Below, in pieces: positions 7,839 to 38,972 of a stretch of DNA of 64,000 nt. Source of the DNA: Candidatus Omnitrophota bacterium (GTDB taxonomy: Bacteria; Omnitrophota; Gorgyraeia; Gygaellales; Profunditerraquicolaceae); NCBI GenBank assembly GCA_030650425.1, contig JAUSED010000003.1:71903-135902 (forward strand), given 5' to 3'. A program made the position numbers and the translations under genes. A model generated the notes under the pieces. It was not told the origin of the DNA and did not search any database. It saw only the letters and a list, made by a program, of their open reading frames with translations. The first letter of the stretch is position 1. Every line of letters starts with the position of its first letter.

Positions 7839-9230
7839 ATGTTAAGAAAAAAAATTATTCTGACACTCTTGGTTATCTACCTTACAGCTGGGAGAGGTTT
7901 GGCTTGGGCGCAGGAGATGGGTAAAATCGAGGCCTTTACACAGTTAGATCGGGTGCTTATACTCGCTCCGCACCCGGATGACGAAAGTATCGCCTGCGCC
8001 GGCATAATTCAACAGGCAAAAAAAGCAGGCGCGGAAGTAAGGGTGCTTTATTTGACCAACGGCGATAATAATGAGTTTGCCTTTATTGTTTACGAGAAAA
8101 GGCTGACTTTTAAGAAAGGCGAATTTATTCATATGGGGCAGGTGCGCCGGCAGGAAGCCGTTAAGGCTATGAAATTGCTTGGAGTGGATGAAAACAAACT
8201 CGTATTTTTAGGTTATCCTGATTTTGGCACTTTCGCCATCTTTAGCAAATATTGGCAGAAAAATAAGCCGTTTAGAAGCATGCTTACGCGGGTAACCAGT
8301 GTACCTTATAAAAACGACTTGTCTTTCGGCGCCCCGTATATTGGAGAAAGCATTTTGAATGATCTGGATAAAATTATCCTTGATTACAAGCCGACAAAGA
8401 TTTTTGTTTCGCATCCGGCGGATTTAAACGTGGATCACCGGGCGCTCTATTTATTCCTACAAATATCTTTGCGGGGTTTAAGAAATAAAATACCCCAGCC
8501 GAAAGTCTATGCTTATTTGGTCCACACTAAAGGCTGGCCGAAACCCCGGCATTATCATCCTGAGTTGAAGCTAGAGCCGCCGAAGAGTTTCGCGGATTCT
8601 CAAATTAACTGGTCAAGGCTTGATTTAACTCCGGAAGCGCTGGAGCGCAAACACCAATCTATCCTTTGCTATAAGAGCCAGACACAATCAAGCGCTTTTT
8701 ATCTCTTGTCCTTTGCACGAGCTAATGAATTATTCGGGGATTATCCCGAAATTGAATTGAGCAGGCAGGTTTCTCTCAAGGAGCGCGCTCCCGCGTTCTT
8801 TGGTTTCTCTAAGATGTATGCCGGCTCAAGCGCCGAAGACGTTCCTGCCGATGATAACCTGATCGAAGGGGAAGGAGAGGTAGGCTATGCCATAGTGGAT
8901 AACTGCCTGCTTATCCGCGCGGCCAAAGATAAGGGATTGACCCGCAGGTTAAATTTAATACTTTATATTTTCGGATTTAGCGATAAAACTGATTTTGCCT
9001 CTATGCCTAAAATACGCGTGCTCACCCGCCGCGGAAAATTTAGAGTTTACGACGGAAAAAGAATGATTAATCCGGAGGGAACCCGTTTGAATTTAAGCCC
9101 GGACGGTTTAGTCTTACATATACCGCTGGCTATTCTGGGCAATCCTGATTTTATACTTACTTCGGTAAGGGCCTACGGAGGAAAACTTAGCCCGGCTGCC
9201 ACAGGTTTTCGCAGGATAGTCATTAAATAA
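7839..9230 (+). CDS. Secreted PIG-L/LmbE family deacetylase with C-terminal domain of unknown function
   Basis: Signal peptide 'MLRKKIILTLLVIYLTAGRGLAWA'; 'LAPHPDDESIACAG' zinc-deacetylase motif; start trimmed from 7722. Confidence 0.6.
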   Translation: MLRKKIILTLLVIYLTAGRGLAWAQEMGKIEAFTQLDRVLILAPHPDDESIACAGIIQQAKKAGAEVRVLYLTNGDNNEFAFIVYEKRLTFKKGEFIHMGQVRRQEAVKAMKLLGVDENKLVFLGYPDFGTFAIFSKYWQKNKPFRSMLTRVTSVPYKNDLSFGAPYIGESILNDLDKIILDYKPTKIFVSHPADLNVDHRALYLFLQISLRGLRNKIPQPKVYAYLVHTKGWPKPRHYHPELKLEPPKSFADSQINWSRLDLTPEALERKHQSILCYKSQTQSSAFYLLSFARANELFGDYPEIELSRQVSLKERAPAFFGFSKMYAGSSAEDVPADDNLIEGEGEVGYAIVDNCLLIRAAKDKGLTRRLNLILYIFGFSDKTDFASMPKIRVLTRRGKFRVYDGKRMINPEGTRLNLSPDGLVLHIPLAILGNPDFILTSVRAYGGKLSPAATGFRRIVIK

Positions 9231-12507: not shown

Positions 12508-12578
12508 TTGGCGTTCCAAGAAGGCTAACAAGGGGAGAAGGCCTAATTTAGGTTAACAAGCCGATTCCTCAAGCTATT

Positions 12579-13319
12579 ATGGTATTGGGTTGGATACTTC
12601 TAAGTACTTTTTTTGTCAGTATTATTTCGCTCGCCGGCGTACTTACCATAGCGATAAAAGACGAGCTGCTGCATAAGATTATCTTTTGCTTTATCGGTTT
12701 TTCCGCCGGAGCGCTTATCGGCAGCGCTTTCCTGCACATCTTGCCGGAGTCTTTAGAAAAAACCAATAGCACCGCTGTTTTCTATTATCTTATCCTGGGT
12801 TTAACCCTATTCTTTCTATTAGAGAGATATCTTCATTGGCGGCACTGCCACGATAAAGACTGCCAAGTCCACGCCTTTACTTACCTGAACCTTTTCGGAG
12901 AGGCTTTCCATAATTTTATTGACGGTATCGCTATCGCCGCGAGTTTCATTATTTCTGTCAAACTGGGGATTGCCACAACCTTAGCGATTATCCTGCACGA
13001 GATCCCTAAGGAATTGGGGAATTTCGGAGTGCTTATTTACGGAGGATTTTCGCGGGGAAGGGCTTTGTTCTATAATTTTATTTCGGCTTTAATGGCGATC
13101 ATCGGCGCGCTAATCGGGTATTTTATAGCTGACTTCGCGCATGGTTTCTCTAATTTTATTATGCCGATGACCGCCGGCGGATTTATTTATATCGCCGCCT
13201 CCGACCTTATCCCGGAGATACATAAAGAGAAGGACCAGAAGCGCGCCACCCTCGCATTTATCTCTTTCTTGTTCGGAGTTGTATTTATGGCATTAGCCAA
13301 GATTTTACTGAAGGATTAA
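12579..13319 (+). CDS. ZIP family metal (zinc) transporter
   Basis: 'HNFIDGIAIAASF' and 'HEIPKELGNFGVL' ZIP signatures; 8 TM. Confidence 0.8.
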   Translation: MVLGWILLSTFFVSIISLAGVLTIAIKDELLHKIIFCFIGFSAGALIGSAFLHILPESLEKTNSTAVFYYLILGLTLFFLLERYLHWRHCHDKDCQVHAFTYLNLFGEAFHNFIDGIAIAASFIISVKLGIATTLAIILHEIPKELGNFGVLIYGGFSRGRALFYNFISALMAIIGALIGYFIADFAHGFSNFIMPMTAGGFIYIAASDLIPEIHKEKDQKRATLAFISFLFGVVFMALAKILLKD

Positions 13320-13324
13320 CAATT

Positions 13325-14320
13325 ATGAAAGCGATTGCTTTGATTTCTGGTGGTTTAGACAGTATCCTGGCTGCAAGGATAATTAAGGAGCAGGGTATTG
13401 AAGTATTACCTTTAAATTTTAAGATCCCTTTTTGCCCCCGTAAAAAAGCGGGTTCACCCGATAATGGCATAAGTTCCTTAGTAAAACGGAATTTGAGCGA
13501 AGAACTTAAAGTGGTTGATATAAGCGCTGATTTTTTGGGATTGCTTTTGGAGCCTAAGTATGGGTTTGGTTCAAATATGAATCCTTGCATAGACTGTAAG
13601 ATTTTTATGCTAAGCAAGGCCAGGGAATTACTCCAGATAATGGGGGCGCAATTTGTGGTTACCGGAGAGGTGCTCGGCCAGAGGCCGATGTCCCAGCATA
13701 GAAGGGCACTCAATCTTATTGAAAAAGAGAGCGGCTTAACCGGATTATTGCTCAGGCCTTTGTGCGCCGGGTTATTGCCGAAAACCCTCCCGGAAAAAGA
13801 GGGTTGGGTTAAGCGCGAGAGATTATTTAAATTCAGCGGAAGGACCCGCCGGCCGCAAATGGACTTAGCTCAGGAGTTCAAGATGGAGCATTATCCTAAC
13901 GCCGCGGGAGGGTGCCTCTTAACCGATCCCGGATTCTCCGTCAGGCTCAAAGACCTGATTAAGCATCAGGCCTTTAGCCTGGAAAATATAGGATTATTAA
14001 AGATTGGGAGGCATTTTAGATTGGCCGAGAACGCGAAATTAATCGTCGGACGTAACGAAGAGGAGAATAAAGAATTAGAGGCAGTTAGCGCTTGCGGAGA
14101 CTATTTATTTATGCCGGATGAAGAGACAGCCGGGCCTACCTGTCTTGGCAGGGGTGAATTCGATGATCAGCTGATAAAGTTTTCTGCTCAAATAGTCTGC
14201 CATTATTGTGATTTAAATGGCGCTGTAGGCGCTGAAATAATTTATACCCATCAGGGAGTATCCTATTCCGCGCAGGCCGCGCCTATTGCCGAAAACAGAT
14301 TAACGAGCTTGAGAATATGA
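13325..14320 (+). CDS. PP-loop ATPase, ThiI-like sulfurtransferase family lacking a THUMP domain
   Basis: 'SGGLDS' PP-loop; 'VTGEVLGQRPMSQ' ThiI-like block; CxxC 'NPCIDCK'. Confidence 0.5.
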   Translation: MKAIALISGGLDSILAARIIKEQGIEVLPLNFKIPFCPRKKAGSPDNGISSLVKRNLSEELKVVDISADFLGLLLEPKYGFGSNMNPCIDCKIFMLSKARELLQIMGAQFVVTGEVLGQRPMSQHRRALNLIEKESGLTGLLLRPLCAGLLPKTLPEKEGWVKRERLFKFSGRTRRPQMDLAQEFKMEHYPNAAGGCLLTDPGFSVRLKDLIKHQAFSLENIGLLKIGRHFRLAENAKLIVGRNEEENKELEAVSACGDYLFMPDEETAGPTCLGRGEFDDQLIKFSAQIVCHYCDLNGAVGAEIIYTHQGVSYSAQAAPIAENRLTSLRI

Positions 14321-15330
14321 AAGAAGCGTTTCTTTATGAAAAATTAACTAAAAAAATAGTTCATTGTTATCTCTGCAGCCATCATTGTAGAATCGCCAAT
14401 CGTAAATTCGGCTTTTGCGGGGTAAGGGAGAATGTGGAAGGGACTTTATATACTCATGCCTATGGTAATGTTGTCGCGGCGCAGGTCGATCCGATTGAGA
14501 AAAAACCGTTGTATCATTTCCTGCCCGGATCTAAAAGTTTTTCCATAGCGGCCTTAGGTTGTAATTTCCGTTGCTCTTTCTGCCAGAACTGGGAAATTTC
14601 CCAGCAGCCAAATAAATCCGGCGCTAATTTACAAGAAGAGGAATTTCTTCCTGCTGATATAGCAGAGGAAGCCCTTAAGAATGACTGTCAAAGTATCTCC
14701 TATACTTATACTGAGCCGACCATCTTTTTTGAATACGCTTATGAAACTGCGCAGGCAGCCAAAGAAAGCGGTTTATGTAACATTTTTGTCACTAACGGAT
14801 ATATGACTAAAGAATGTATTACCATGATTAAACCTTATTTAGATGCCGCCAATATCGACCTTAAATTTTTTAATGACGCAAGCTATCAAAAGAACTGCGC
14901 GGGGAGGCTGAAACCGGTATTGGATTCTATCCGGTTGATGAAAGAGCTTGGTATTTGGGTAGAGGTAACTACTTTGGTGATTCCCGGGGAGAATGACTCT
15001 GAAGCCGAGTTGTCCGGGATAGCCGATTTTCTCGCCGGAGTGGATAAGGCTATGCCTTGGCATATTTCGCGTTTTCATCCTGATTATAAATTCCGTAAAT
15101 ACGGGCTTACTCCCGAAGATACACTTAAAAAGGCCTACTCTATCGGGGTTAAGGCGGGACTGGATTTTATCTATATAGGTAATGTCAGCGGCTGGGGGAA
15201 TGATACGCTTTGCCCTAGCTGCAAAAAAATATTAATTAAAAGGGAATATTTTAATATTTTGGAGTATAATATCCAAGAAAATAAGTGCATTTATTGCCAA
15301 AAAGAGGTACCGGGAGTATTCAAGGGTTAG
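14317..15330 (+). CDS. amrS: AmmeMemoRadiSam-system radical SAM enzyme
   Basis: N-terminal Cys cluster 'CYLCSHHCRI..FCGVREN' and radical-SAM 'CNFRCSFCQNW'; ATGA overlap with the upstream gene. Confidence 0.75.
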   Translation: MKEAFLYEKLTKKIVHCYLCSHHCRIANRKFGFCGVRENVEGTLYTHAYGNVVAAQVDPIEKKPLYHFLPGSKSFSIAALGCNFRCSFCQNWEISQQPNKSGANLQEEEFLPADIAEEALKNDCQSISYTYTEPTIFFEYAYETAQAAKESGLCNIFVTNGYMTKECITMIKPYLDAANIDLKFFNDASYQKNCAGRLKPVLDSIRLMKELGIWVEVTTLVIPGENDSEAELSGIADFLAGVDKAMPWHISRFHPDYKFRKYGLTPEDTLKKAYSIGVKAGLDFIYIGNVSGWGNDTLCPSCKKILIKREYFNILEYNIQENKCIYCQKEVPGVFKG

Positions 15331-15331
15331 A

Positions 15332-15994
15332 ATGAAGATCATCAATCCGGAAAAGTGCGTTGTTTTCTTTGATTTTGATAATACTATTGCTACCTGCGAT
15401 GTGTTTGATAGTATGCTGCCCCGTTTTTCTCAAGATGACCTATGGGTAAAACTAGAGAAGGACTGGCAGAAGGGGAAGATCGGCTCGCATGCCTGCCTTG
15501 AGGGCCAGATTAGCGGAATCAGCATCACCAAGCAGGCGCTGGATAAATATTTAGCCGGTATAAAATTAGACCCTTACTTTAAAAAAATAGTAACGTCGCT
15601 ATCCGCCAGTAAAGTACAGGTGATCGTATTAAGCGATAATTTTGATTATATCTTAAAGCGCATATTAGGCTTTAACTCCATCAGGAATTTAAAGGTTTAT
15701 TCCAATAAGTTAAAATTTACCGAAGATAAACTCATTCCTTACTTTCCATTCAAGAGCAAGAAGTGCCAGGTATGCGCCCATTGCAAGACAAAAAATCTCT
15801 TGGCAAACGTAACCCCGGATTCTATAATAATCTATGTAGGAGACGGCCGTTCGGATATCTGTCCGTCACAGTACGCGGACCTGGTATTTGCCAAAGACTC
15901 TCTCTTAAAGTATTTTCAGGATAAGAAACTTACCTGTTTTGCTTACGAGTCTTTAAAAGACGTTTATACTTATTTTAAAAGGAGTTTTGTGTGA
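15332..15994 (+). CDS. HAD-IB family phosphatase (MtnX/phosphoserine phosphatase-like)
   Basis: 'FFDFDNTIATCD' DxDxT motif; 'GDGRSD' motif IV. Confidence 0.6.
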   Translation: MKIINPEKCVVFFDFDNTIATCDVFDSMLPRFSQDDLWVKLEKDWQKGKIGSHACLEGQISGISITKQALDKYLAGIKLDPYFKKIVTSLSASKVQVIVLSDNFDYILKRILGFNSIRNLKVYSNKLKFTEDKLIPYFPFKSKKCQVCAHCKTKNLLANVTPDSIIIYVGDGRSDICPSQYADLVFAKDSLLKYFQDKKLTCFAYESLKDVYTYFKRSFV

Positions 15995-17412
15995 ACCAGA
16001 AACTGGCGAGTAAAAAACCCAAAATCGATAATAAAGTTCCGGCTCCTTCAAACGAACTCTTGGAATTGGAAGCAAAATATTGTTCTTGGGGGGATACGGT
16101 GCATTACGCGGATAAACTTAATATATTCAAGGCCGCTGATGGCAGTTTTTTATATGACAAGGCCGGCGTTGAGTTCCTGGATTTACAGATGTGGTACTCC
16201 GCGGTTAATTTTGGATACAGGAATAAGCGCCTGAATACCGCCCTTAAAGAACAGATTGATACCCTGCCGCAATTGGCCTGTCAGTATTTGCACGAAGAGA
16301 AAATTCAATTGGCTGCCAAAATCAGCCGTAGGAACGAAATGACCTTTGAGGAGAAGGGGAGAGTGCATTTTAATGTCGGCGGTTCGTCAGCCTTAGAGGA
16401 TTCGTTAAAGCTGGTGAGGAATCATTCGGGCCGCAGCCTGGTTTTTGCTTTTATGGGCGGTTACCACGGCAGGACCCTGGCAGCTTCGGCAATTACCTCA
16501 AGTTTTCGCTATAGAGAGCGCTTTGGGCATTTCGGAGACAGGGCGAACTTTGTGCCGTTTCCTTATTGTTTTCGCTGCCCGTATGATAAAAAGAAAGATT
16601 TTTGCGACCTCTACTGCTTAAAGCAATTCGAAAGGTTGTTTGAAACAGAATATTATTCGATCGTCAATAAGAAGACGAATAAGTGCGAATTTTCCGCTTT
16701 TTACGTTGAAGCAGTGCAGGGGACCGGCGGCTACATCATTCCGCCGCAGGAGTATTTCTCAGGTTTAAAAGAAATCCTGGATAGATACGGCATACTCTTG
16801 GTGGATGACGAAATACAGATGGGATTCTTTAGGACCGGAAAATTCTGGGCTATAGAACATTTCAACGTTACTCCTGACATAATTGTCTTTGGGAAGGCCC
16901 TGACCAACGGCCTGAATCCCATTTCCGGGATTTGGGCAAAAGAAAAATTCATTTCTCCGGATGTCTTTCCGCCGGGATCCACCCATGCTACATTCTCTTC
17001 CAATCCCTTAGGTACGGCAGTAGGTTTAGAGGTAATGAAAGTGATAGAAGAGTCTAACTTTAGCGTGGATATCCCTGAAAAGGGCCGATATTTTCTTAAC
17101 CGTTTTAAGAAACTGCAAAAGAAGTACCCACAGATAGGCGACGTTGACGGTTTGGGGATGGCTATACGCGTGGAGATGTGCGAAAAGGATGGTTACACCC
17201 CGAGCAAAGAGCTGGCCGACAGGATAGTGGATTTAGGCCTGAGCGGAGATCTTAGTGTGGGCGGGAAAAAGCGCGGCCTGATTTTAGATATCGGCGGTTA
17301 TTACAAAAATGTCTTTACCATGGCGCCCTCTTTCTATATTAGCGAAAAAGAGATCGACCTTGGAGTTGATCTCTTTGAAGAAGCGCTCTCTAAAGCGTTA
17401 AAGCAATCTTAA
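15991..17412 (+). CDS. Class III (omega) PLP-dependent aminotransferase
   Basis: 'LLVDDEIQMGFFRTGKFWA' and 'VFGKALTNG' (PLP lysine); GTG start with SD AAAGGAG. Confidence 0.8.
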   Translation: MNQKLASKKPKIDNKVPAPSNELLELEAKYCSWGDTVHYADKLNIFKAADGSFLYDKAGVEFLDLQMWYSAVNFGYRNKRLNTALKEQIDTLPQLACQYLHEEKIQLAAKISRRNEMTFEEKGRVHFNVGGSSALEDSLKLVRNHSGRSLVFAFMGGYHGRTLAASAITSSFRYRERFGHFGDRANFVPFPYCFRCPYDKKKDFCDLYCLKQFERLFETEYYSIVNKKTNKCEFSAFYVEAVQGTGGYIIPPQEYFSGLKEILDRYGILLVDDEIQMGFFRTGKFWAIEHFNVTPDIIVFGKALTNGLNPISGIWAKEKFISPDVFPPGSTHATFSSNPLGTAVGLEVMKVIEESNFSVDIPEKGRYFLNRFKKLQKKYPQIGDVDGLGMAIRVEMCEKDGYTPSKELADRIVDLGLSGDLSVGGKKRGLILDIGGYYKNVFTMAPSFYISEKEIDLGVDLFEEALSKALKQS

Positions 17413-17430
17413 AAAAATATTCCCTTCTTT

Positions 17431-18360
17431 ATGCTTGAGCCGCCTATCCGCGTTTTGGATTTTGATGGCAGCGTTATAAAACAGCATAATCTCTTATCGC
17501 AATATCCGCACCAGATTATCGCCTTAAAAGACATGGCTCCCGGAGCCCGCCTATGGATGAATAAACGCGTCAAGCGCGCTATTTTGGAGCGCCTAAGGCA
17601 AACCCGGAAAAATTGCGTTACTTTTCTTGGTTCCGGAGATTTTCATCACCTTAGCCTGCTTCTTTTAGAACAATTCCAAGAGCCAATCTCGCTGATCACT
17701 TTTGATTTTCATCCTGATTGGGATATTTTACCTCCACGGCTGGCCTGTGGTTCTTGGGTAACCCAAGCCCTCAAGAAAAAGAATATCCTTAAATGCGCGC
17801 TGATCGGCGTATCCAGCGATGATCTTTCCTGGCCTGGGATACAAAGCGCCAACTTAGCCTGCCTTAAGCATAATCGATTGGAAATTTACCCCTATGTTCA
17901 CGCGCCTTCAGCGGTTTTCTTGAGAAGGGTCCCGCAGAATATTTCTTTAAAGGCGAGGCCATCTTTCCTGAGCGCTAAGATTTATTGGGAAGAGCTAAAA
18001 AGCAAAAACCTGGAGGATTTTTTCCGTTCGTTGATTAGGCGCCTGCCCGCGGAAAAGGTGTATCTTTCTATTGATAAAGACTGTCTGCGGAATGAATTTG
18101 CTTTAACTAATTGGGAAGAGGGTAAGTTAGCGCTGGATGAGCTTATTCTAATGCTCAGGCTGATCAAAGAGAATCTGGAGATAGTCGGTTTGGATATTAG
18201 CGGAGATTATTCCAAGATTGCTCCATCCGGTTTATTTAAGGATTTGATTTCGCGCTTTGACCATCCCCATAAAGTTGAGGCGGATAAAATTTCCGGGGAA
18301 GAGATAACTAGGGTTAACCAATCAACTAATCTTAAAATACTGGAAACTATTTTTAGTTAA
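17431..18360 (+). CDS. Arginase/agmatinase/formiminoglutamase-fold (ureohydrolase) family protein, divergent
   Basis: Degenerate metal motifs 'GSGDFHHLS', 'DFHPDWD', 'SIDKDCL' in canonical order. Confidence 0.45.
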   Translation: MLEPPIRVLDFDGSVIKQHNLLSQYPHQIIALKDMAPGARLWMNKRVKRAILERLRQTRKNCVTFLGSGDFHHLSLLLLEQFQEPISLITFDFHPDWDILPPRLACGSWVTQALKKKNILKCALIGVSSDDLSWPGIQSANLACLKHNRLEIYPYVHAPSAVFLRRVPQNISLKARPSFLSAKIYWEELKSKNLEDFFRSLIRRLPAEKVYLSIDKDCLRNEFALTNWEEGKLALDELILMLRLIKENLEIVGLDISGDYSKIAPSGLFKDLISRFDHPHKVEADKISGEEITRVNQSTNLKILETIFS

Positions 18361-19582
18361 GCCGCACCTGTTTTTTTATTTCTTCGATTACAGATAAGGC
18401 CTCTTTTTGAGTCAAGAAAGTGCTGGTGGTTAAGGTAATATGGTGTTTAGCAATGAGCCGCGCGTTTGGGCAGTCTTGAGCGCCAACCGTATTTCTTAGG
18501 TAATCATAATCCGTGATTGCCGAAAGGTAAATTTGCGATATCCCCAGACCGGAATTCATTAAGCTGTTAAACGCCCGCCGGCGTTTTAATTCGTCGTCGA
18601 AAACTAAAGTTAAATAAGGATAATTTGGCTTGGAATGCTTAAGGCCGGTAATCAATTTTATTCCCGGCAGGTCTTTAAGCTCGGTTATATAAGTGGAAGC
18701 GATTTGCCTTTGCTTGGCGATTTCCCTCTCTATGCGGTTAAACATAACATGGCCAATTTTTTTTCTTATACCAGATACCTTGTGCACGGGAAAGGTAACC
18801 TCGAAATATTCAATAAACGCCTTTTCCATTTTACCCTGCATCTGCCAGAAAATCTGCGGGAGCCTGAAGACAAACCAAAATAGGAGCGGCCGGTAAAAAA
18901 TCCAGTATCCAAATAACTCCAGGATTTTCAGGAGTTCGGCAAGCGGCGCGGTTTTTACAACTCGCTTTATTACACTCTCGATTGCCGGCGCGAATTCAGC
19001 CTTACTTGTGATCACTCCCCCCTCGTAGATAGTCAGGCCTTTACCGCGGCAGAGGCTGTAAAAAGCAAAATCACCGAAGCTGCCGGTTTTTTTGCCCTGG
19101 TACTGGGCCCCCAAACTTTGCGCGCAGTCTTCAATAATGAATATTTTATTTTCCCGGGTTATTTTTTGTATAGCCTGAAAATCCAAAGGTATACCGGCAA
19201 GATGCACGGCTACAATCGCCAGAATGTCGTTATTATTTGAACACATTTCAACTAGTTGATTAATCTGAAAATTGAAGTCATCCTGATTTATATCGCAAAC
19301 CAGGACTTTTAATCCCGCCCTTTGTATGGCTAACGGGATAAGCGGGCAGATAAAAGAAGGGATAATCACGTTTTTCTTAAGGGATAGGCTTTTTAAGGAT
19401 TCTAGTATGATATAGAAAGCAGCTGTGCCGGAATTAGTTACGCTAGCGTAAGTTACGCCTAGATAGTTTTTGAAGTCTTCTTCTAAAGAGCCGGATCGGC
19501 CTCTGTTCAAAAAGGCTAAAAACCAATCTTTAGCATAGATAGGCAGGCCTGCAGTGGGTGGTATCTGGCGAAATAAACTCAT
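18353..19582 (-). CDS. DegT/DnrJ/EryC1/StrS (ArnB-like) sugar aminotransferase
   Basis: 'IIEDCAQSLGAQYQGKKTGSFGDFAFYSLCRGKGL' with PLP lysine context. Confidence 0.8.
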   Translation of the reverse strand: MSLFRQIPPTAGLPIYAKDWFLAFLNRGRSGSLEEDFKNYLGVTYASVTNSGTAAFYIILESLKSLSLKKNVIIPSFICPLIPLAIQRAGLKVLVCDINQDDFNFQINQLVEMCSNNNDILAIVAVHLAGIPLDFQAIQKITRENKIFIIEDCAQSLGAQYQGKKTGSFGDFAFYSLCRGKGLTIYEGGVITSKAEFAPAIESVIKRVVKTAPLAELLKILELFGYWIFYRPLLFWFVFRLPQIFWQMQGKMEKAFIEYFEVTFPVHKVSGIRKKIGHVMFNRIEREIAKQRQIASTYITELKDLPGIKLITGLKHSKPNYPYLTLVFDDELKRRRAFNSLMNSGLGISQIYLSAITDYDYLRNTVGAQDCPNARLIAKHHITLTTSTFLTQKEALSVIEEIKKQVRLN

Positions 19583-19702: not shown

Positions 19703-20125
19703 ATGAATATGTTTAAGAAGAGGCTTACCCTAAAAATATTATTTTTTCTTATCTCTACTGATTTTCTGGAGACATTCACCCACCTCTGTTTCAAAAAAAG
19801 CGCCCTGATTGAAAACGAAGTCGTCATCACCAAAGTATCCGATGCCGTCTCTTTTCTGATGGTTGTTTTTTCATCTCCCTTTTTGTGGGTAGGGCTTTTA
19901 TCCGTGTTAGCGACATTTATTATCTGGTCGAGCTTACTCTCTAAGATTGACTTAAGTGTGGCAGTGCCCATATGCAGTTTTAGCTATATCCTCATCCCTT
20001 TAGCTTCCATTTTTTTCCTGCATGAAAAAGTAAGCCTTTTCAGGTGGTCAGGGGTATTATTCATACTCTTGGGGGTGGTCTTTGTTTCTTTAAGCGCCTC
20101 AGAGAAGGAGCGCAGCCCGGAATGA
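19703..20125 (+). CDS. Small EamA/SMR-like 4-TM membrane protein, ArnE/ArnF-like flippase subunit
   Basis: ~140 aa, four hydrophobic helices; divergent from degT. Confidence 0.5.
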   Translation: MNMFKKRLTLKILFFLISTDFLETFTHLCFKKSALIENEVVITKVSDAVSFLMVVFSSPFLWVGLLSVLATFIIWSSLLSKIDLSVAVPICSFSYILIPLASIFFLHEKVSLFRWSGVLFILLGVVFVSLSASEKERSPE

Positions 20126-20502
20126 AACAAGGCTTACCTTTCATTTTATCCCTTATCGCCTTTACCAGCGTCTGCGATACGATCAACCAACTTTTTTTGA
20201 AATCCGCGATAAATTCCCTGCATTCACCCAAAGGTAACATTAGGGCGGTACTAAATTTTATTCTCAAGTTAATTATGGTGCCGCGGGTTTGGGTTAGTTT
20301 TCTCTTTAGCATAATTTCATTGTGTATTTGGCTATTTGTATTGTCTCAGGTAGATTTAAGCTTTGCCTTCTCCGCAGACAGCATGCATTATATCTTTATC
20401 GCGCTTACCTCCAGGTTTATCTTGAAAGAAAAGGTATCTCTTAAACGATGGGTGGGAATAATTCTAATCGTGGCCGGTATAATGATGGTTAGTCTGAGTT
20501 AG
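20122..20502 (+). CDS. Small EamA/SMR-like 4-TM membrane protein, ArnE/ArnF-like flippase subunit (second of a pair)
   Basis: ATGA overlap with the upstream partner; start trimmed from 20044. Confidence 0.5.
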   Translation: MKQGLPFILSLIAFTSVCDTINQLFLKSAINSLHSPKGNIRAVLNFILKLIMVPRVWVSFLFSIISLCIWLFVLSQVDLSFAFSADSMHYIFIALTSRFILKEKVSLKRWVGIILIVAGIMMVSLS

Positions 20503-20556: not shown

Positions 20557-21180
20557 TTAAAATTTGTAAGCTATCCCGGTATTTACGGAGTAGCTGTTTA
20601 TTCCGTGATTAGGTTCTTTAATTCCGGAATTAGAAAGGTGGCGCCAGCGGCCTTCTAAGGTAAAGGCGGTATTATTAGTGAAGAAATAATGTATCCCCAG
20701 CGCGGCTTGTTCCGTAAAATTAAACTGGGTGGACTGCTCATCCGTATGCAAGGTCATATAATTTAAGCCTGCGCCTAATTTTACGTAAGGCTCCAGCCTC
20801 CAAGTGTCGGGGAATAATCCCAGTTTAAGCCAGAAGATCGTTCCTGTTTCCAAATTGTTGTGGGGCCTAGAGATGAAGCCGAGGAACGGTTCGATCTGGA
20901 ATTGAAAAATCCCTGAGGGGTTAAAATTTATTTTTGAGGAAAGATTTTTGAGATTGAAATCAAAAGCGGCGCTAAAAGGAATAACATTGTAGTTGGTTTG
21001 GCCTTTAAGTTTCCCCCAGCCAAAACCGGTGAGGAATTCCACGCCTACAAGGCTTTTTTGATTTGTTTCTTCGGCGTGAGGGGTATTTGAGGCAAGAAGA
21101 ATAAACCCTGATATTAGAACCAAAGTTATAATTTTCTTCATCCATAGAATTATACAAAAATACCGCGCTAAAGCAAGCAT
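20557..21180 (-). CDS. Outer-membrane beta-barrel protein (OmpW/PagL-like); start at M18 (SD GAGGA), alternative M31
   Basis: Signal peptide, alternating amphipathic strands, C-terminal 'GIAYKF' aromatic terminus. Confidence 0.45.
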   Translation of the reverse strand: MLALARYFCIILWMKKIITLVLISGFILLASNTPHAEETNQKSLVGVEFLTGFGWGKLKGQTNYNVIPFSAAFDFNLKNLSSKINFNPSGIFQFQIEPFLGFISRPHNNLETGTIFWLKLGLFPDTWRLEPYVKLGAGLNYMTLHTDEQSTQFNFTEQAALGIHYFFTNNTAFTLEGRWRHLSNSGIKEPNHGINSYSVNTGIAYKF

Positions 21181-21302
21181 TTTTTTCCTCAGTAGAAAAA
21201 AGTCAGAAATAAGGGCAATTAGCCAATACAATTGCTTCTTGGATTTTGGTATATATAAATAATATAACTAGCAGTTGCTTTATTACTTAATAGGAGGAAA
21301 AA

Positions 21303-21610: not shown

Positions 21611-22009
21611 ATGAAATTAATCACTAGAAATACGGATTACGCGCTAAGGGCATTATGTTTTATCGCCAAAAGCGATGGTAAGATTATTCCTGTTTCAGGA
21701 CTGGCTCGTGAATTACGGGTCCCGCAGCCGTTCTTAAGGAAAATACTACAGGTATTAAGCAAGAAGCGGATACTGAAGTCTCTTAAGGGTCAGGGCGGCG
21801 GATTTTTGTTAAAGAGGAGCCCGGTAAAGATCTTCTTGCCGGATATAATGCGCATATTTCAAGGTAAATTGAGGTTGAATGAATGTTCTTTAAAGAAGCT
21901 TCTTTGCCCGGAACAGAAGACTTGCCCTTTGAGGAAAAAAATCTCCGGTATTGAACGTTATGTATTAAGAGAACTTAACGCTATCAGCATAGCGTCTTTG
22001 ATAGGTTAA
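21611..22009 (+). CDS. Rrf2-family transcriptional regulator (IscR/NsrR-like, with C-x6-C-x5-C Fe-S ligand cluster)
   Basis: N-terminal wHTH 'TDYALRALCFIA'; 'ECSLKKLLCPEQKTCP'. Confidence 0.85.
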   Translation: MKLITRNTDYALRALCFIAKSDGKIIPVSGLARELRVPQPFLRKILQVLSKKRILKSLKGQGGGFLLKRSPVKIFLPDIMRIFQGKLRLNECSLKKLLCPEQKTCPLRKKISGIERYVLRELNAISIASLIG

Positions 22010-22018
22010 AGGTAAACC

Positions 22019-22846
22019 ATGTCCAAAAGAAAAATTATCAAGATTAACGAAAACAAATGCAATGGCTGCGGCTTGTGTATACCAAACTGCCCGGAAGGCG
22101 CGATTCAAATCATCGATCAGAAAGCGCGTTTAATCAGCGATTTATGCTGCGATGGGCTGGGGGCATGCCTTGGCCATTGTCCGCAAGGAGCAATCACCAT
22201 AGAAGAGAGAGAAGCAGAAGAATATAACGAGAAGAAAGTGATGGAGAATATTGTAAAACAGGGCCCGAATGTGATTAAGGCCCACCTGCATCATCTTAAA
22301 GAACATAGCCAGTCGGCCTACCTAAAGGACGCCCTTGACTATTTAGAAGAAAAAGGGATTCGTAAATCTATAGAGGAGGATATAGAGATTCATGCGCACC
22401 GAGAATGCCCCGGTTCTAGGATAATTGATTTGAGGCCTAAGCAAGTTCCAGCTGGGGCTGAGTGGGCTGTGAAGCTTGAATCCAGGTTGGCTAATTGGCC
22501 GGTGCAGCTTATGCTTGTTCCAGCTTATGCGCCTTATTTAAAGGGTGCCGATATACTTATCGCCGCGGATTGTGTGCCTTTTGCCTATGCTAATTTTCAT
22601 GAAGGACTACTTAAGGGGAAGGTCTTGCTCGTTGGCTGCCCTAAGCTTGACGATGCAGGGATCTATAAGGATAAACTCACCCGGATATTCAAGGAGAATG
22701 AGATCAAGTCTATTAGCTATGCCCATATGGAAGTCCCCTGTTGTTTTGGGCTGGTGAGTATAATTCAATCAGCCATCGATGAATCAGGGAAAAAAGTTCC
22801 TTTTAAGGAGATAGTCATCGCTATAAGCGGAGAGAGATTGAAGTGA
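22019..22846 (+). CDS. 4Fe-4S dicluster ferredoxin-domain protein with C-terminal domain of unknown function
   Basis: 'CNGCGLCIPNCPEGAI' and 'CCDGLGACLGHCPQGAI'. Confidence 0.6.
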   Translation: MSKRKIIKINENKCNGCGLCIPNCPEGAIQIIDQKARLISDLCCDGLGACLGHCPQGAITIEEREAEEYNEKKVMENIVKQGPNVIKAHLHHLKEHSQSAYLKDALDYLEEKGIRKSIEEDIEIHAHRECPGSRIIDLRPKQVPAGAEWAVKLESRLANWPVQLMLVPAYAPYLKGADILIAADCVPFAYANFHEGLLKGKVLLVGCPKLDDAGIYKDKLTRIFKENEIKSISYAHMEVPCCFGLVSIIQSAIDESGKKVPFKEIVIAISGERLK

Positions 22847-23559
22847 TTTATAAATGTCCCGGTCAAGATAAGAGGAATGTTTTGGCAGAAACACTGAGGT
22901 GCCCGGAATGCGGTTACGCGATAGAATTGTTTTCCGACGAGATCAGGGCCAGGTGCCCGCGGTGCAGAAAGGAGACATCGCGAGAAATTTTGCCTACCTG
23001 TATTGACTGGTGTAAGCACGCCAATGAATGCGTGGGAGAGAATATCTATAAGGAGCATTTAAAAAATAAATCTTTGGTTTTGAAAGATAAGCTGCTTAAG
23101 GATTTAGAGGAATATTTCGGAGAAGATCAAAGAAGGATTAATCACGCCAGAAAAGTAATGGATTTTTCCGAAGAGCTGTTGCGTAAGGAAGGAGGGGATT
23201 GGCATATTGTTATTCCGGCGAGTATCCTGCATGACGTTGGGATTAAGCTCGCGGAAAAAAAATACGGTTCATCCGCCGGGCATTACCAGGAGAAGGAAGG
23301 GCCGGAAGTGGCCGCCGGCATACTGCGTAAGGAAAATTTCAAGAGAAAGGATATCGACCAGATATGCAAGATTATCGCCTACCATCATTCTCCCGGTAAG
23401 ATTGAAACAATCAATTTTAAGGTATTATATGACGCGGATTGGTTGGTGAATTTAAAGGATGAAGCCGGGTTGGATGATCAGGAGAAGTTGGGAAAGGTTA
23501 TTGAAAGGGTTTTTCTTACTGAGGCGGGTAAGCAAAAAGCAAAAGAATTGTATCTATAA
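22843..23559 (+). CDS. HD-domain phosphohydrolase with N-terminal zinc ribbon
   Basis: 'CPECG...CPRC' ribbon; 'HARKV...ILHDVG...AYHHS' H..HD..H..D pattern. Confidence 0.65.
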   Translation: MIYKCPGQDKRNVLAETLRCPECGYAIELFSDEIRARCPRCRKETSREILPTCIDWCKHANECVGENIYKEHLKNKSLVLKDKLLKDLEEYFGEDQRRINHARKVMDFSEELLRKEGGDWHIVIPASILHDVGIKLAEKKYGSSAGHYQEKEGPEVAAGILRKENFKRKDIDQICKIIAYHHSPGKIETINFKVLYDADWLVNLKDEAGLDDQEKLGKVIERVFLTEAGKQKAKELYL

Positions 23560-23573
23560 GGAGGGAGAGGAAA

Positions 23574-24869
23574 ATGAGTATGTTTTGTTATCAGTGCGAA
23601 CAGACAGCAGGAGGAAGCGGTTGCGCAAAATTAGGCGTATGCGGGAAAAACGAAGATATCCAAAGCCTGCAGGATATTCTCTTGTTTGGTTTAAAGGGTA
23701 TTGCTGCTTACGCCTATCATGCCCGGGAGTTAGGCGCCAAATCTGAAGAGGTCGATGCGTTTATGCATGAGGCTTTATTTAAGACCGTAACTAATGTAAG
23801 TTTCGATTTAAATCAGCATCTGGATTTGGTTTTAAAATGCGGGGCAATGAACCTGGTGACCATGGAGATGCTGGATAAGGCGCATACCCAGAGGTTTGGG
23901 GATCCGGTTCCCACGCAAGTTGAAACAGGGACCAAGGTAGGCCCGGGGATTTTAGTTACCGGGCATGATTTGTTGGATTTGTATGAGTTATTAAAACAGA
24001 GCGAGGGAACAGGGGTCAATATTTATACCCATAGCGAGATGCTCCCCGCGCACGGCTATCCGGAATTAAGAAAATTCAAGCATTTGGCCGGTAACTATGG
24101 CGGGGCTTGGCAGGAGCAGAAAAAAGAATTCAATGCTTTTAGCGGCGCGATCTTAGCTACGACTAATTGCGTGTTGATTCCGCCGGAAAATTCTTATCTT
24201 AACCGGCTCTTTACGGTAGGGATTACCGGAATTACCGGGGCAACGCATTTAGCCGGTAGAAACTTTAAGGCCCTGATTGAGAAAGCGAAATCCCTTCCTT
24301 CTTTAGCCCAAGCGCCGGGAAAAAAGATTATCACTGGTTTTCACCATACGGCGATTTTGGGCTTAGCGGATAAAATTGTCAATTTGGTAAAATCCGGGAA
24401 AATCCGGCATTTTTTCTTAATCGGCGGATGCGACGGAGCAAAACCCGGCAGGAATTATTACACGGAATTTGCCGAAAAGGTGCCTAAGGATTGCGTAATT
24501 CTCACCCTTGCCTGCGGTAAATACCGTTTTAACAAGCTCGATTTTGGGGAAATCGAAGGAATCCCGCGGCTTATCGATGTCGGCCAGTGCAATAACGCTT
24601 ATTCGGCAATACAGGTAGCTATTGCTTTAAGTAAGGCCTTTAATTGCGGGGTAAATGAGCTTCCTTTGACTTTAGTGCTCTCTTGGTTTGAGCAAAAAGC
24701 AGTTGCTATCCTGCTTACTTTGTTGTATCTTAATATCAAAGGTATTTACATCGGCCCGACTCCACCGGCGTTTATCTCCAAGAATGTTTTTGGAGTTTTA
24801 CAGGAAAAATTTGATTTGAGATTGATTAGTTCTCCTGACGAAGATCTGAAAAAGATATTCAACAAATAA
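23574..24869 (+). CDS. hcp: Hybrid cluster protein / hydroxylamine reductase (short class)
   Basis: Hallmark N-terminus 'MFCYQCEQTAGGSGCAKLGVCGK'; 431 aa. Confidence 0.85.
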   Translation: MSMFCYQCEQTAGGSGCAKLGVCGKNEDIQSLQDILLFGLKGIAAYAYHARELGAKSEEVDAFMHEALFKTVTNVSFDLNQHLDLVLKCGAMNLVTMEMLDKAHTQRFGDPVPTQVETGTKVGPGILVTGHDLLDLYELLKQSEGTGVNIYTHSEMLPAHGYPELRKFKHLAGNYGGAWQEQKKEFNAFSGAILATTNCVLIPPENSYLNRLFTVGITGITGATHLAGRNFKALIEKAKSLPSLAQAPGKKIITGFHHTAILGLADKIVNLVKSGKIRHFFLIGGCDGAKPGRNYYTEFAEKVPKDCVILTLACGKYRFNKLDFGEIEGIPRLIDVGQCNNAYSAIQVAIALSKAFNCGVNELPLTLVLSWFEQKAVAILLTLLYLNIKGIYIGPTPPAFISKNVFGVLQEKFDLRLISSPDEDLKKIFNK

Positions 24870-24924
24870 CACCCCGCGCTTATAGGAATTGCGCGGGTGT
24901 GCCCTTCTGGGCAAGGAGGTGAAT

Positions 24925-24987
24925 ATGAGCTGCGGAAGATGCGGATCAATGGCCAAGAAGAAAAAGAAAAAAGCTAAGAAGAAGTAG
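24925..24987 (+). CDS. Micro-ORF (20 aa) MSCGRCGSMAKKKKKKAKKK; possible leader/regulatory peptide
   Basis: Perfect SD 'aaggaggtg' 5 nt upstream; CxxC then a poly-Lys tract encoded by an A-rich run; followed by a hairpin. Confidence 0.25.
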   Translation: MSCGRCGSMAKKKKKKAKKK

Positions 24988-25014
24988 CTTAGAAACAGGG
25001 AGAAACAAGGAAAC

Positions 25015-25045
25015 AAGGACCGTTTCCTTTCAGGAAACGGTCCTT
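25015..25045 (+). terminator. Hairpin 'aaggaccgtttcc-tttcag-ggaaacggtcctt' (weak T-tract)
   Basis: 13-bp perfect stem; member of the local GGACCGTTTCC terminator family. Confidence 0.4.
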
Positions 25046-25103
25046 AAATTCTCAAAGAGAAAATAGCCGCTGTCCCCTAAGAGAGAAGAGAGGGAGGTTC
25101 AAG

Positions 25104-25262
25104 ATGGACAAATATAGATGCACAGTATGCGGTTATATTTATGACCCTGCGCAGGGTGATGCGAGCGCAGCTATTCCCGCAGGTACGCCTTTTGATAAAT
25201 TACCCGCGGATTGGGTCTGTCCGGAGTGTGGAGTAGGTAAAGATATGTTTGAAAAGGTTTGA
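25104..25262 (+). CDS. rub: Rubredoxin
   Basis: [15 protein letters not shown]...[16 protein letters not shown]; SD AGGGAGG; missed by the ORF track (<60 aa). Confidence 0.85.
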
Positions 25263-25275
25263 AGAGAGGTAAATT

Positions 25276-26127
25276 ATGCTGTCAAAAATAACCTTTAAAG
25301 CTAACCCGCTTACTTTAGTGGGCAGACAGATAGATACCGGAAGCATCGCTCCTGATTTCAGGGTCGTTGACAAAGATCTCAATGAAGCAGGATTAGTTGA
25401 TTTCAAGGGTAAAATTAAGTTAATCAGTTCTTTTCCGTCGATAGATACGCCTGTCTGCGACTTACAGGTCAAGGAATTCAATAAAAAAGCTGCCAGTTTA
25501 TCCGCTGACATAGTGGTCATAGGGATAAGCAAAGACCTCCCCTTTGCCCAAAGCCGGTTTTGTTCTCTCAACGAAATTAAAAACGAGGTTATCTTTTCAG
25601 ATTACAAATATTCATCCTTTGGGATTAATTACGGATTGTTGATCAAAGAACTAAACCTGTTGGCCCGTTCAGTGTTAATTATAGATAAAAACGATATACT
25701 AAGGTATTTTAAGATTGTCCCGGAATTAACCCAAGCTGTGGATTATCAGGAGGCGTTGGGTAATCTAGAGGCAGTTCTCAAAAGCCCTAACTTGATCGAT
25801 AAGCAAGGTAAAGTCATCCGCTGTATTCCTTGTGAAGGCGTAGTTCCGGCCCTAGCTAGGGCAGAGATTGAGAAAGCGCTCTCCGGGCTCCCGGGATGGG
25901 AGGTAATCGAAGATAAAAAAATAACTAAAGAATTTAAGTTTAAAGATTTTATCGAGGCCAAATACTTTCTAGACTTGGTTGCGCTGATCGCCGAAGAGCA
26001 GGGACATCATCCCACACTGACTTTAATTTATAACAAACTGAAGATTACGCTTACCACACACGCCGCAGGCGGCCTTACCGCGAACGACTTTATTATGGCT
26101 GGGATAATTGATAGATTAAGCGCTTAA
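25276..26127 (+). CDS. Thiol peroxidase (Tpx) fused to a pterin-4a-carbinolamine dehydratase (PCD/DCoH) domain
   Basis: Tpx 'SIDTPVCDLQVKEFNKK'; C-terminal 'EEQGHHPTLTLIYNKLKITLTTHAAGGLT' matches the PCD signature. Confidence 0.75.
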   Translation: MLSKITFKANPLTLVGRQIDTGSIAPDFRVVDKDLNEAGLVDFKGKIKLISSFPSIDTPVCDLQVKEFNKKAASLSADIVVIGISKDLPFAQSRFCSLNEIKNEVIFSDYKYSSFGINYGLLIKELNLLARSVLIIDKNDILRYFKIVPELTQAVDYQEALGNLEAVLKSPNLIDKQGKVIRCIPCEGVVPALARAEIEKALSGLPGWEVIEDKKITKEFKFKDFIEAKYFLDLVALIAEEQGHHPTLTLIYNKLKITLTTHAAGGLTANDFIMAGIIDRLSA

Positions 26128-26832
26128 ATGACTAAAGATTTAATGGTGAGAGTTAAGGAAGTCATCCCAAGGACTTATAATGTTAAAAGTATCCGTTTTG
26201 ATCTTGGGGTAGAGTTTGATTTCAAAGCCGGGCAATTTCTTTCTCTAACACTTCAAAATAATCCGGCGTTAAAAAGATACCTTTCCATATCCAGCTCGCC
26301 CACGGAAAAATGCTACTTAGAGGTAACCAAGAAAATTACCGGCAGCGATTTTTCCAAAACGCTTGGTCAGCTTAAAACCGGGGATACCGTCACTATTCAG
26401 TATCCTTTCGGTAAATTTATTTTAGAAGAGCAAGAGAAAAGAATAGCATTTTTGTCCGGAGGCATAGGGATTACGCCGATAAGAAGCATAGCCAAATATG
26501 CCGTAGATAAAAATTTAGGTGTGGATATGGCCTTAATTTATGCCAACCGTTCGCTAAAAGATATCGTCTTTAAAGAAGATTTTGACGCGATGCAAAAAAT
26601 CTACCCTAAATTAAAGGTTAGTCATGTGCTTTGCGAAGCGGATCCGGGGTTTAAATGTATACCCGGTTTAATCAATGCCCAGGTGATTAAAAACGAAGTG
26701 AGCGATTATGCGCGAAGAAAGTTTTATCTCTGCGGCCCGCCAGCAATGGTAGAGGCGATGGGTAAGATATTGACTGAAGAATTAGGGTTAGATAAAAAAA
26801 ATATTATTACCGAGAATTTTCAAGGTTATTAG
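26128..26832 (+). CDS. FAD/NAD(P)-binding oxidoreductase (ferredoxin-NADP reductase-like)
   Basis: 'KRYLSISS' RxYS FAD motif; 'AFLSGGIGITP' NAD(P) motif. Confidence 0.7.
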   Translation: MTKDLMVRVKEVIPRTYNVKSIRFDLGVEFDFKAGQFLSLTLQNNPALKRYLSISSSPTEKCYLEVTKKITGSDFSKTLGQLKTGDTVTIQYPFGKFILEEQEKRIAFLSGGIGITPIRSIAKYAVDKNLGVDMALIYANRSLKDIVFKEDFDAMQKIYPKLKVSHVLCEADPGFKCIPGLINAQVIKNEVSDYARRKFYLCGPPAMVEAMGKILTEELGLDKKNIITENFQGY

Positions 26833-26861
26833 CCTGTTTCATAAGCAGGCGGGGAGGCGCT

Positions 26862-28055: not shown

Positions 28056-28058
28056 ATA

Positions 28059-28235
28059 ATGGGTCCGATAGAAGCTTTGGAGTTGGCGCTGGGAAAAGAA
28101 ATCGAAGCCAGGGATATGTACGAGAAATTCAGTTACCAGTATCCCGCAACAAAAGAGATTTTTACTTTTCTAATGAACGAAGAAGCGAAACATAAACAGC
28201 TGATTGAGAAAAGGATAGTAGAGCTGCAAGATTAG
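28059..28235 (+). CDS. 58-aa two-helix 'half-ferritin' protein (rubrerythrin/ferritin-like ExxH half-site)
   Basis: SD GGGGAGG; 'FLMNEEAKHKQLIEK'; resembles the N-terminal half of the 28711 gene product; not in the ORF track. Confidence 0.4.
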   Translation: MGPIEALELALGKEIEARDMYEKFSYQYPATKEIFTFLMNEEAKHKQLIEKRIVELQD

Positions 28236-28700
28236 ATGAAACAACTTAACGATACTATTGTTCAATTCTTTCAAAAGCAGGGATGTGTTATAATTTCAAG
28301 TATCGATAGCAACGGCTTTCCCCATAGTTCTTGTAAGGGTATAGTCAGGATTGATAAAAAAGGAAGTATTTATTTGCTTGATGCCTACAGGGGCAAAACT
28401 TTTCAAAACCTGCAAAACAATCCTAATGTAAGCGTTACGTCTTTTGACGAAGATAAATTTGTCGGCTACTGCCTTAAAGGAAGGGCGCGCCTTTTATCCA
28501 AAGAGGAAGTTGACGCCGGGATGATCAGGGCTTGGGAGGATAGAATCACCAGCAGGCTGACCCAAAGGTTGCTGAAAAATATCCGCGGTGATGCAAAAGG
28601 ACATCCTGCTCATCCGGAAGCTTTATTACCTAAACCGGAGCATATGATTGTTGTTAGTGTTAAAGAGGTAGTTGATCTTACACCGCACCATTTAAAATAA
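28236..28700 (+). CDS. Pyridoxamine 5'-phosphate oxidase-like FMN-binding split-barrel protein
   Basis: ~150 aa; 'PHSSCKG...YLLDAYRGKTFQNL' pattern typical of PNPOx-like proteins. Confidence 0.55.
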   Translation: MKQLNDTIVQFFQKQGCVIISSIDSNGFPHSSCKGIVRIDKKGSIYLLDAYRGKTFQNLQNNPNVSVTSFDEDKFVGYCLKGRARLLSKEEVDAGMIRAWEDRITSRLTQRLLKNIRGDAKGHPAHPEALLPKPEHMIVVSVKEVVDLTPHHLK

Positions 28701-38971: not shown

Positions 38972-38972
38972 T

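Follow-up and report, generated by a model that had tools for sequence, protein, structure and literature searches.

Two probable gene modules side by side in an Omnitrophota locus: a ThiI/NFACT-R-radical SAM gene pair next to a cassette with a ureohydrolase-fold protein

Do the tightly packed genes around an AmmeMemoRadiSam-family radical S-adenosylmethionine (SAM) enzyme in a Candidatus Omnitrophota bacterium serve one common pathway, or do they belong to separate functional units? The question is raised by a 64,000-nt stretch of a contig from a metagenome-assembled genome (MAG), referred to in the following as the window; all negative findings reported for the window cover these 64 kb, and its open reading frames (ORFs) of at least 100 amino acids were scanned with Pfam and NCBIfam profiles. 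An earlier note on this DNA had described a radical SAM enzyme without its usual partner genes and had placed it, together with a PP-loop ATPase, a phosphatase, an aminotransferase and a ureohydrolase-like protein, in a single uncharacterised pathway. Comparison with related loci led us to a different view, namely that two independent units are located side by side: one consisting of a ThiI/NFACT-R protein and the radical SAM enzyme, the other being a separate cassette that we call Module B. We assign a probability of roughly 55% to this reading. The locus as such presents known protein families in a new context.

The gene run begins with a ZIP-family divalent-metal transporter gene (Zip; 12579..13319, + strand; PF02535, 150 bits), followed by the genes for a ThiI-like PP-loop ATPase that lacks THUMP and ends in an NFACT-R_2 domain (13325..14320, +; PF02568 and PF18297) and for the AmmeMemoRadiSam-family radical SAM enzyme (14317..15330, +; TIGR04337, 336.1 bits versus a cutoff of 220); these three genes are our Module A. 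Module B starts with the gene for an MtnX/PHOSPHO-like phosphatase of the HAD-IB type (15332..15994, +; TIGR01489, 99.6 bits versus 81.55; PF06888) and continues with those for a class III pyridoxal-phosphate (PLP) enzyme (15991..17412, +; PF00202 Aminotran_3, 260 bits), a divergent ureohydrolase-fold metallohydrolase (17431..18360, +; PF00491, 31 bits versus 22), a DegT/DnrJ/EryC1-type sugar aminotransferase (18353..19582, -; PF01041, 173 bits) and two small proteins of the EamA/drug-metabolite transporter (DMT) type, the first ArnE/F-like (19703..20125, +; PF00892) and the second ArnF/E-like (20122..20502, +; PF00892). The second EamA gene, whose start was taken from the L001 gene call, overlaps the first by 4 nt; the L001 gene call for the first begins at window position 19709. 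The five genes from the PP-loop ATPase to the ureohydrolase-like protein were found by ORF, Pfam and NCBIfam analysis where the earlier note had placed them, all on the + strand and each in the family named there; the DegT and ArnE/F-like genes lie downstream of them, as had also been noted.

From Zip to the ureohydrolase-like gene, six genes on the + strand follow each other at distances of 5, -4, 1, -4, and 18 nt. The first of these gaps separates the end of Zip from the start of the PP-loop gene, and the single nucleotide lies between the radical SAM stop codon and the HAD-IB start. The stop codon of the PP-loop gene and the start codon of the radical SAM gene share the sequence ATGA; this 4-nt overlap, read directly from the sequence, bears out the proposed translational coupling of the two genes. 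A promoter/terminator scan revealed a promoter-like site in front of Zip (12553-12580) but no intergenic terminator-like site within the packed run and nothing else that was informative. Zip through the ureohydrolase-like gene are probably transcribed as a single unit. An antisense ORF of 142 amino acids that covers the start of the PP-loop gene (13285-13713, -) is without family support and most likely spurious.

We compared the window with 165 related loci (1.76 Mb), comprising the neighbourhoods of close radical SAM homologues, 80 GTDB loci retrieved through alignment of the radical SAM protein and 80 metagenome loci retrieved through alignment of the arginase-like protein. The GTDB loci stem from species representatives, are the 80 most similar to the window radical SAM enzyme (50-79% identity), and represent Omnitrophota, Aminicenantes, Syntrophales, Nitrospirota, Chloroflexota, Bathyarchaeia, and Altiarchaeota. 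ORFs of the compared loci were sorted into families by phmmer searches and clustering. In a neighbour-joining tree of 93 radical SAM proteins, all those encoded next to a PP-loop gene fall into one monophyletic Omnitrophota clade.

If the PP-loop, radical SAM, HAD-IB, aminotransferase, and ureohydrolase-like proteins jointly made one aminated small molecule, the close packing of their genes with no terminator-like site in between would be readily understood, as would the presence of the HAD-IB gene behind the radical SAM gene in 17 of the 26 clade loci. The related loci speak against it. Module B occurs without the radical SAM and PP-loop genes in at least 11 loci in which 2-8 kb of flanking DNA are available on the respective side, and at least seven independent loci have the PP-loop/radical SAM pair but no Module B. 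Across about 80 metagenome loci, the Module B genes stay together in shuffled order and orientation, and the radical SAM gene never moves along with them. In loci that have both modules next to each other, the radical SAM and HAD-IB genes are mostly separated by a gap of 100-900 nt, which is closed only in the sub-lineage of the window. Furthermore, the window radical SAM enzyme is 50-60% identical to orthologues of unrelated phyla and of archaea that lack Module B. Because each module occurs alone, Module B is reshuffled without the radical SAM gene, and the gap is usually open, we favour two modules over one pathway; the single-pathway reading is largely refuted by these comparative data and we now regard it as very improbable. 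What counts against our view is the frequency of the HAD-IB gene behind the radical SAM gene, which also amounts to 6 of 14 loci in the unbiased GTDB set, so that some link between the modules is possible. The part of the earlier proposal that stands is that the HAD-IB, class III, and ureohydrolase-like genes form a conserved cassette, to which the DegT gene and the ArnE/F-like pair belong as well; the radical SAM and PP-loop genes are outside it. In the comparison of the 165 loci, conservation applies to the PP-loop/radical SAM pair within its clade and to Module B, each by itself, and not to the five genes as one unit.

Within the clade, the PP-loop gene is located directly upstream of the radical SAM gene in 25 of 26 members, while this arrangement was found for none of the 65 scorable radical SAM genes outside the clade (three further loci that are cut at a contig edge are not counted among these). 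Sixteen of 23 independent loci show the 4-nt overlap at the junction of the pair, and in all but two the distance stays within 27 nt; no locus carries a gene inserted between the paired genes. This ATGA-type overlap is kept down to about 56-60% radical SAM identity, while the genes on both flanks change. Most clade loci have Zip upstream of the pair, sometimes with FeoAB between it and the PP-loop gene, and the radical SAM gene can be followed by HAD-IB, by ThiM-ThiE, by a second Zip together with isochorismatase and Thi4, or by a CitMHS transporter gene. Since neighbours are exchanged on both sides, the conserved core is the two-gene PP-loop/radical SAM pair. In one member of the clade (L099, 4017-5780), Zip is directly followed by the radical SAM gene and the ThiI/NFACT-R gene has been cleanly deleted; hence, the radical SAM gene can persist alone. 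The pairing was not found outside the Omnitrophota; a deltaproteobacterial locus (L069) with a ThiI/NFACT-R gene at a distance of 6 kb from the radical SAM gene and on the opposite strand was judged a coincidence. Nor did we find the ThiI-radical SAM coupling in the searchable literature, and we regard it as a new, lineage-restricted contextual clue.

What kind of enzyme is the PP-loop partner? The earlier note had characterised it as a ThiI-like PP-loop protein lacking THUMP. No match to THUMP was indeed detected with Pfam or NCBIfam, and a rhodanese domain is absent as well, but it had been overlooked that the protein has, in place of THUMP, an NFACT-R_2 domain at its C-terminus. The N-terminal part matches the ThiI family PF02568 (35.6 bits versus a cutoff of 20.5) and carries the motif SGGLDS at residues 8-13, which is invariant among its homologues; the C-terminal part matches PF18297 (64.2 bits versus a cutoff of 26.9). 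The PGAP annotation of the protein is ThiI. Its PP-loop fold and its ATP site (SGGxDS) are shared with canonical ThiI, which combines THUMP and PP-loop domains and in some cases also has rhodanese. It differs from canonical ThiI in the missing THUMP and rhodanese domains and in a score of only 37 bits with the canonical model TIGR00342, whose cutoff is 264.5. A sequence search of solved structures returned no close entry. In the AlphaFold2 (AF2) model (mean predicted confidence, pLDDT, 90.2), Foldseek matched the N-terminal domain to MnmA in complex with tRNA, to ThiI (2c5s, 4kr6), and to the [4Fe-4S] enzyme LarE, and the C-terminal domain to the NFACT proteins FBPS (5h3w) and RqcH (7aqc/8s1u).

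These features place the protein in the ThiI+DUF814 (NFACT-R) family, which has been predicted to provide an alternative pathway of tRNA 4-thiouridylation (Burroughs & Aravind 2014, PMC4075521). Both share the architecture of a ThiI-like PP-loop domain with a C-terminal NFACT-R_2 domain and without THUMP and rhodanese, as well as the CxxC, internal Cys, and GRxRxxQ motifs described for the family (PMC4075521). In the window protein, these correspond to C88 and C91, to C197, and to G172, R173, R175, and Q178, all of which are invariant in 24 and also in 50 homologues. It is accordingly a predicted tRNA 4-thiouridine synthase. As its family membership suggests, such an enzyme would most likely bind tRNA via the NFACT-R domain and adenylate the O4 of a uridine; the oxygen would then be exchanged for sulfur via a Cys3-ligated Fe-S site (C88, C91, C197) to yield 4-thiouridine. 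The only conserved neighbour reported for ThiI+DUF814 is TusA, and a radical SAM enzyme is not mentioned (PMC4075521), whereas the neighbour in the clade of the window is the radical SAM enzyme; the TusA motif GxxCPxP was present in no frame of the window in a weak, motif-only search. A second PP-loop/sulfur-donor pair is located 16 kb from the ThiI-like gene (30609-32575, +) and comprises a LarE-type PP-loop sulfur transferase (TIGR00268, 307 bits versus 150) and NifS (TIGR03402, 563 bits), whose genes overlap by 4 nt and are followed by BirA. This NifS could serve as the sulfur source for the ThiI/NFACT-R protein.

The resemblance of the N-terminal domain to LarE, a cofactor thiolator, brings up another role for the pair, namely in the formation of a non-RNA sulfur cofactor such as the thiamine thiazole or a metal cofactor. 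Zip and FeoAB upstream of the pair would suit such a function, and Thi4, or ThiM plus ThiE, is encoded downstream of the pair in six loci (L003, L004, which is near-identical to L003, L005, L007, L008, and L031). However, sequence and structure (the RqcH and FBPS matches) alike identify the C-terminal domain as an RNA-binding NFACT-R module, and the ThiI-specific CxxC, Cys, and GRxRxxQ motifs have been kept. Neither the window nor the majority of clade loci contain thiamine genes, and we therefore rank a role in thiamine synthesis low; a cofactor function of the pair is in our estimation quite improbable.

The conservation of AMMECR1 and MEMO1 extends from archaea to humans; the radical SAM enzyme belongs with them to the AmmeMemoRadiSam system (TIGR04335/TIGR04336/TIGR04337). 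The window enzyme passes the TIGR04337 model and carries the motif CNFRCSFCQNW in addition to an N-terminal CxxCxxxCx9C. Of 93 homologues, 99-100% retain its 11 motif cysteines (four N-terminal, those of CxxxCxxC, and four C-terminal) and about 96-97% retain C124 and C194; the radical SAM member of a canonical triad (L070) has all 11. A sequence search of solved structures yielded as the closest entry only the pyruvate formate-lyase activating enzyme (PFL-AE; E = 8e-5). In contrast to the three-gene system, the window has the radical SAM gene coupled to ThiI/NFACT-R and, as the earlier note had pointed out, no gene for either partner: among its ORFs, neither AMMECR1 (TIGR04335/PF01871) nor a Memo/LigB-type protein (TIGR04336/PF01875) was detected with Pfam and NCBIfam profiles, and AMMECR1 was not found through its RGChG motif either. 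When the window and the 165 loci were searched with this motif and, using seeds from L070, with phmmer and tblastn, L070 alone gave matches, and none of the other loci of the PP-loop-linked clade contains an AMMECR1 or Memo gene.

The missing partners are nevertheless not the anomaly for which they had been taken. Absence of an adjacent AMMECR1 or Memo gene is the norm, since it applies to 79 of the 80 closest GTDB loci. The exception is L070, which stems from a Gottesmanbacteria MAG and encodes three proteins above the TIGR04335, TIGR04336, and TIGR04337 cutoffs. An exhaustive HMMER search with the radical SAM protein returned 7821 cluster representatives (1450 at E <= 1e-30), and we surveyed the best 150 of these for fusions. 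Thirty-eight of the 150 are at least 400 amino acids long, and in 12 of these the radical SAM protein is fused to AMMECR1 and/or Memo; the window enzyme is 40-50% identical to radical SAM proteins fused to AMMECR1 and Memo. As gene fusions join them, AMMECR1 and Memo are real partners of the radical SAM family. Judged by its sequence, the window enzyme is an orthodox AmmeMemoRadiSam orthologue, whose true partners would, according to the fusions, be AMMECR1 and Memo, and dispersal of the genes is common.

Other long proteins in the same survey carry redox modules. Three of the 38 are fused to flavodoxin/FNR (diflavin) reductases (P0366, P0394, P0410) and five to membrane DsbD_2/FMN_bind/Fer4_5 modules (P0399, P0414, P0424, P0465, P0490), both of which presumably act as built-in donors of electrons to the radical SAM cluster. 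An insertion of about 430 amino acids directly behind CxxxCxxC splits another seven of the 38 long proteins (P0387, P0388, P0403, P0408, P0437, P0445, P0488); the insertion in P0387, the only one of the seven scanned against Pfam, is an intein with a LAGLIDADG domain. Inteins are a sign that the radical SAM protein is a highly conserved and probably important enzyme.

What, then, might the coupling of the radical SAM gene to a predicted tRNA-thiolation gene signify? In the searchable literature, we found no established function for AMMECR1, MEMO1, or their radical SAM partner, but predictions without experiments (PMC2034487, PMC4075521). AMMECR1, the radical SAM enzyme, and a Memo-type dioxygenase have been proposed to catalyse an RNA base modification (Balaji & Aravind, PMC2034487), and AMMECR1 has been tied to NFACT genes in archaea (Burroughs & Aravind, PMC4075521). 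On our reading, one Omnitrophota clade has captured the radical SAM gene and coupled it translationally to ThiI/NFACT-R, which agrees with the older prediction of an RNA-acting AmmeMemoRadiSam system but does not prove it. In other phyla, the same radical SAM family has neighbours that also lean towards RNA, although these are associations only. Archease and RtcB genes follow the radical SAM gene in 8-10 loci from several phyla, endonuclease III is encoded beside it in 10 loci, often upstream of radical SAM genes of the archease/RtcB type, and an altiarchaeotal radical SAM gene adjoins that of a KRR1/PNO1-type KH protein. The archease/RtcB arrangement (L013, L017, L022, L024, L058, L059, L062, and L068, with the radical SAM gene at about 8001-9011 in most) was seen in Aminicenantes, Nitrospirota, and Latescibacterota and was not found in the literature searched. 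The conserved coupling to a tRNA-thiolation-type enzyme and the archease/RtcB neighbours together provide contextual support, by guilt-by-association, for the RNA-modification prediction.

A bolder version of this idea is that the radical SAM enzyme of the clade has been re-partnered with ThiI/NFACT-R and that the two enzymes work one after the other at a single tRNA position, where thiolation would take place before or after the radical chemistry. We consider this a long shot; if true, it would offer a first genetic handle on the substrate of the AMMECR1/MEMO1/radical SAM system, which is conserved up to humans. Alternatively, the adjacency may be inherited gene order without function, in which unrelated Fe-S housekeeping enzymes happen to be encoded behind a metal transporter. 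Several observations weigh against an RNA-related partnership and most of them suit inherited order: the pair is confined to a single lineage, in which the upstream CsgG-like and Zip genes are equally syntenic; L099 has lost the PP-loop gene and kept the radical SAM gene; and among the best 150 radical SAM representatives, in which AMMECR1/Memo fusions are common, none is fused to a PP-loop, NFACT-R, or RNA-binding domain, just as none of the 120 nearest PP-loop homologues is fused to a radical SAM protein. The membrane redox fusions do not point to RNA either. On the other hand, inherited order accounts poorly for a 4-nt overlap that lasts over such sequence divergence while the flanking genes are replaced, and for the independent RNA-linked neighbours (archease/RtcB, KH protein) in other phyla. 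We hold inherited order to be unlikely, though well worth reckoning with.

Returning to the second of the two independent units that we favour, the coherence of Module B is evident from the frequency with which its members accompany the ureohydrolase-like gene: HAD-IB co-occurs with it in 29 loci, the class III PLP gene adjoins it in 46, and DegT is found with it in 38; the EamA pair is conserved in 44 loci. In most relatives, the cassette also carries genes for a FemAB-like transferase and an S33 α/β-hydrolase (Hydrolase_4). The closest structures to the HAD-IB protein in the PDB are MtnX (2fea) and phosphoserine phosphatases. Those closest to the class III enzyme are an archaeal Ala/Ser racemase (9wqz) and a GABA aminotransferase-like protein (7vno); it reached no NCBIfam equivalog cutoff and, from its sequence, could be an omega-aminotransferase or an amino-acid racemase. 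The DegT protein matched scyllo-inositol and perosamine aminotransferases in the PDB, with the PseC, LegC, and ArnB models all remaining below their cutoffs.

The ureohydrolase-like protein had been called degenerate, a description that does not agree with our data. The protein retains its metal site: all 50 homologues compared have D70/H72, D92-x-H94-x-D96, D215-x-D217, and D255 unchanged, and the DxHxD and DxD (SxDxD) motifs align with the metal ligands of the agmatinase motifs FDAHCD and FDIDC; in the GGDH-like/GD(F)H motif, the position of the first His is uncertain by one residue. The Pfam match spans residues 186-256 only, and sequence searches of solved structures gave marginal agmatinase matches only. 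The AF2 model (pLDDT 93.6), however, was matched by Foldseek with a probability of 1.00 to agmatinase (7lox/7lol), proclavaminate amidinohydrolase (PAH; 1gq6), and guanidinase (9fek), at TM scores of about 0.57. The protein thus has the fold and the DxHxD/SxDxD metal-ligand motifs in common with the ureohydrolases (agmatinase SpeB, PAH, guanidinase) but is only 11-16% identical to them. We detected 2249 homologues; among the best 120, all those whose source is named are from Omnitrophota. All contigs on which we encountered the family are Omnitrophota-like, and its genes lie either in the context of Module B or beside GH3/AMP-binding ligases. The latter contexts comprise a GH3 acyl-acid amido synthetase or a PaaK-like AMP-binding enzyme (L142, 8924-10723, -; L148; L136, 6695-8011, +), which hints at an amide conjugate as the substrate of the ureohydrolase-like protein.

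Among known systems, Module B resembles Arn (PmrHFIJKLM), which serves the modification of lipid A with 4-amino-4-deoxy-L-arabinose (L-Ara4N). Like Arn, Module B pairs a DegT/ArnB-type aminotransferase with two small ArnE/F-like DMT proteins, and it adjoins lipid A genes: in the window, the cassette is flanked by PagL-like and LpxL-like genes, and the former, which encodes a PagL-like outer-membrane lipid A 3-O-deacylase (20557..21231, -; PF09411, 65 bits), is a frequent neighbour that we encountered beside Module B in several loci. Module B differs from Arn in its additional HAD-IB, class III PLP, ureohydrolase-fold, FemAB-like, and α/β-hydrolase genes. Two kinds of data count against the analogy. 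The proteins score far below the equivalog cutoffs (ArnB, 86.5 versus 631; ArnE, 36.7 versus 92 for the first EamA protein, which reaches 34 bits and is likewise below cutoff with ArnF; ArnF, 40.4 versus 99 for the second), and neither the window cluster nor the conserved members of Module B include ArnA, ArnC, ArnD, or ArnT; no glycosyltransferase and no analogue of ArnA, ArnC, or ArnT was found at the Module B locus. Module B probably equips a component of the cell envelope with amino groups. By analogy to Arn, we infer that it most likely builds and flips a lipid-linked amino-sugar or an amino-acylated envelope decoration; it would make, possibly amino-acylate, deprotect, and flip a lipid-linked amino sugar. 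A role in the synthesis and export of polyamines, to which the ureohydrolase, an omega-aminotransferase, and a pair resembling small multidrug resistance (SMR) proteins might contribute, is kept as an alternative and was left unranked, since Module B comes together with DegT, FemAB-like, and lipid A genes. Viewed through guilt-by-association, Module B would represent a previously undescribed, apparently Omnitrophota-wide envelope-modification cassette with a new ureohydrolase-fold family.

Further downstream, the window contains an oxidative-stress island (21611-30339) with genes for Rrf2, ferredoxin, an HD protein, hybrid-cluster protein, rubredoxin, flavodiiron protein, rubrerythrin, and a TrxB-like protein; located in it is an unusual fusion of an AhpC/Redoxin peroxiredoxin with a pterin-4a-carbinolamine dehydratase (25276-26127, +). 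Two group-4 [NiFe]-hydrogenase/complex-I-like membrane clusters (36240-43130 and 47717-56082, +) enclose genes for MnmA (43158-44228), NadA, an RluA-type pseudouridine synthase, PAP2, PfkB, and YqeY. Behind them follow a patatin-like phospholipase with an N-terminal cyclic-nucleotide-binding domain (59080-61098, +) and the maturation protease HycI (61866-62324).

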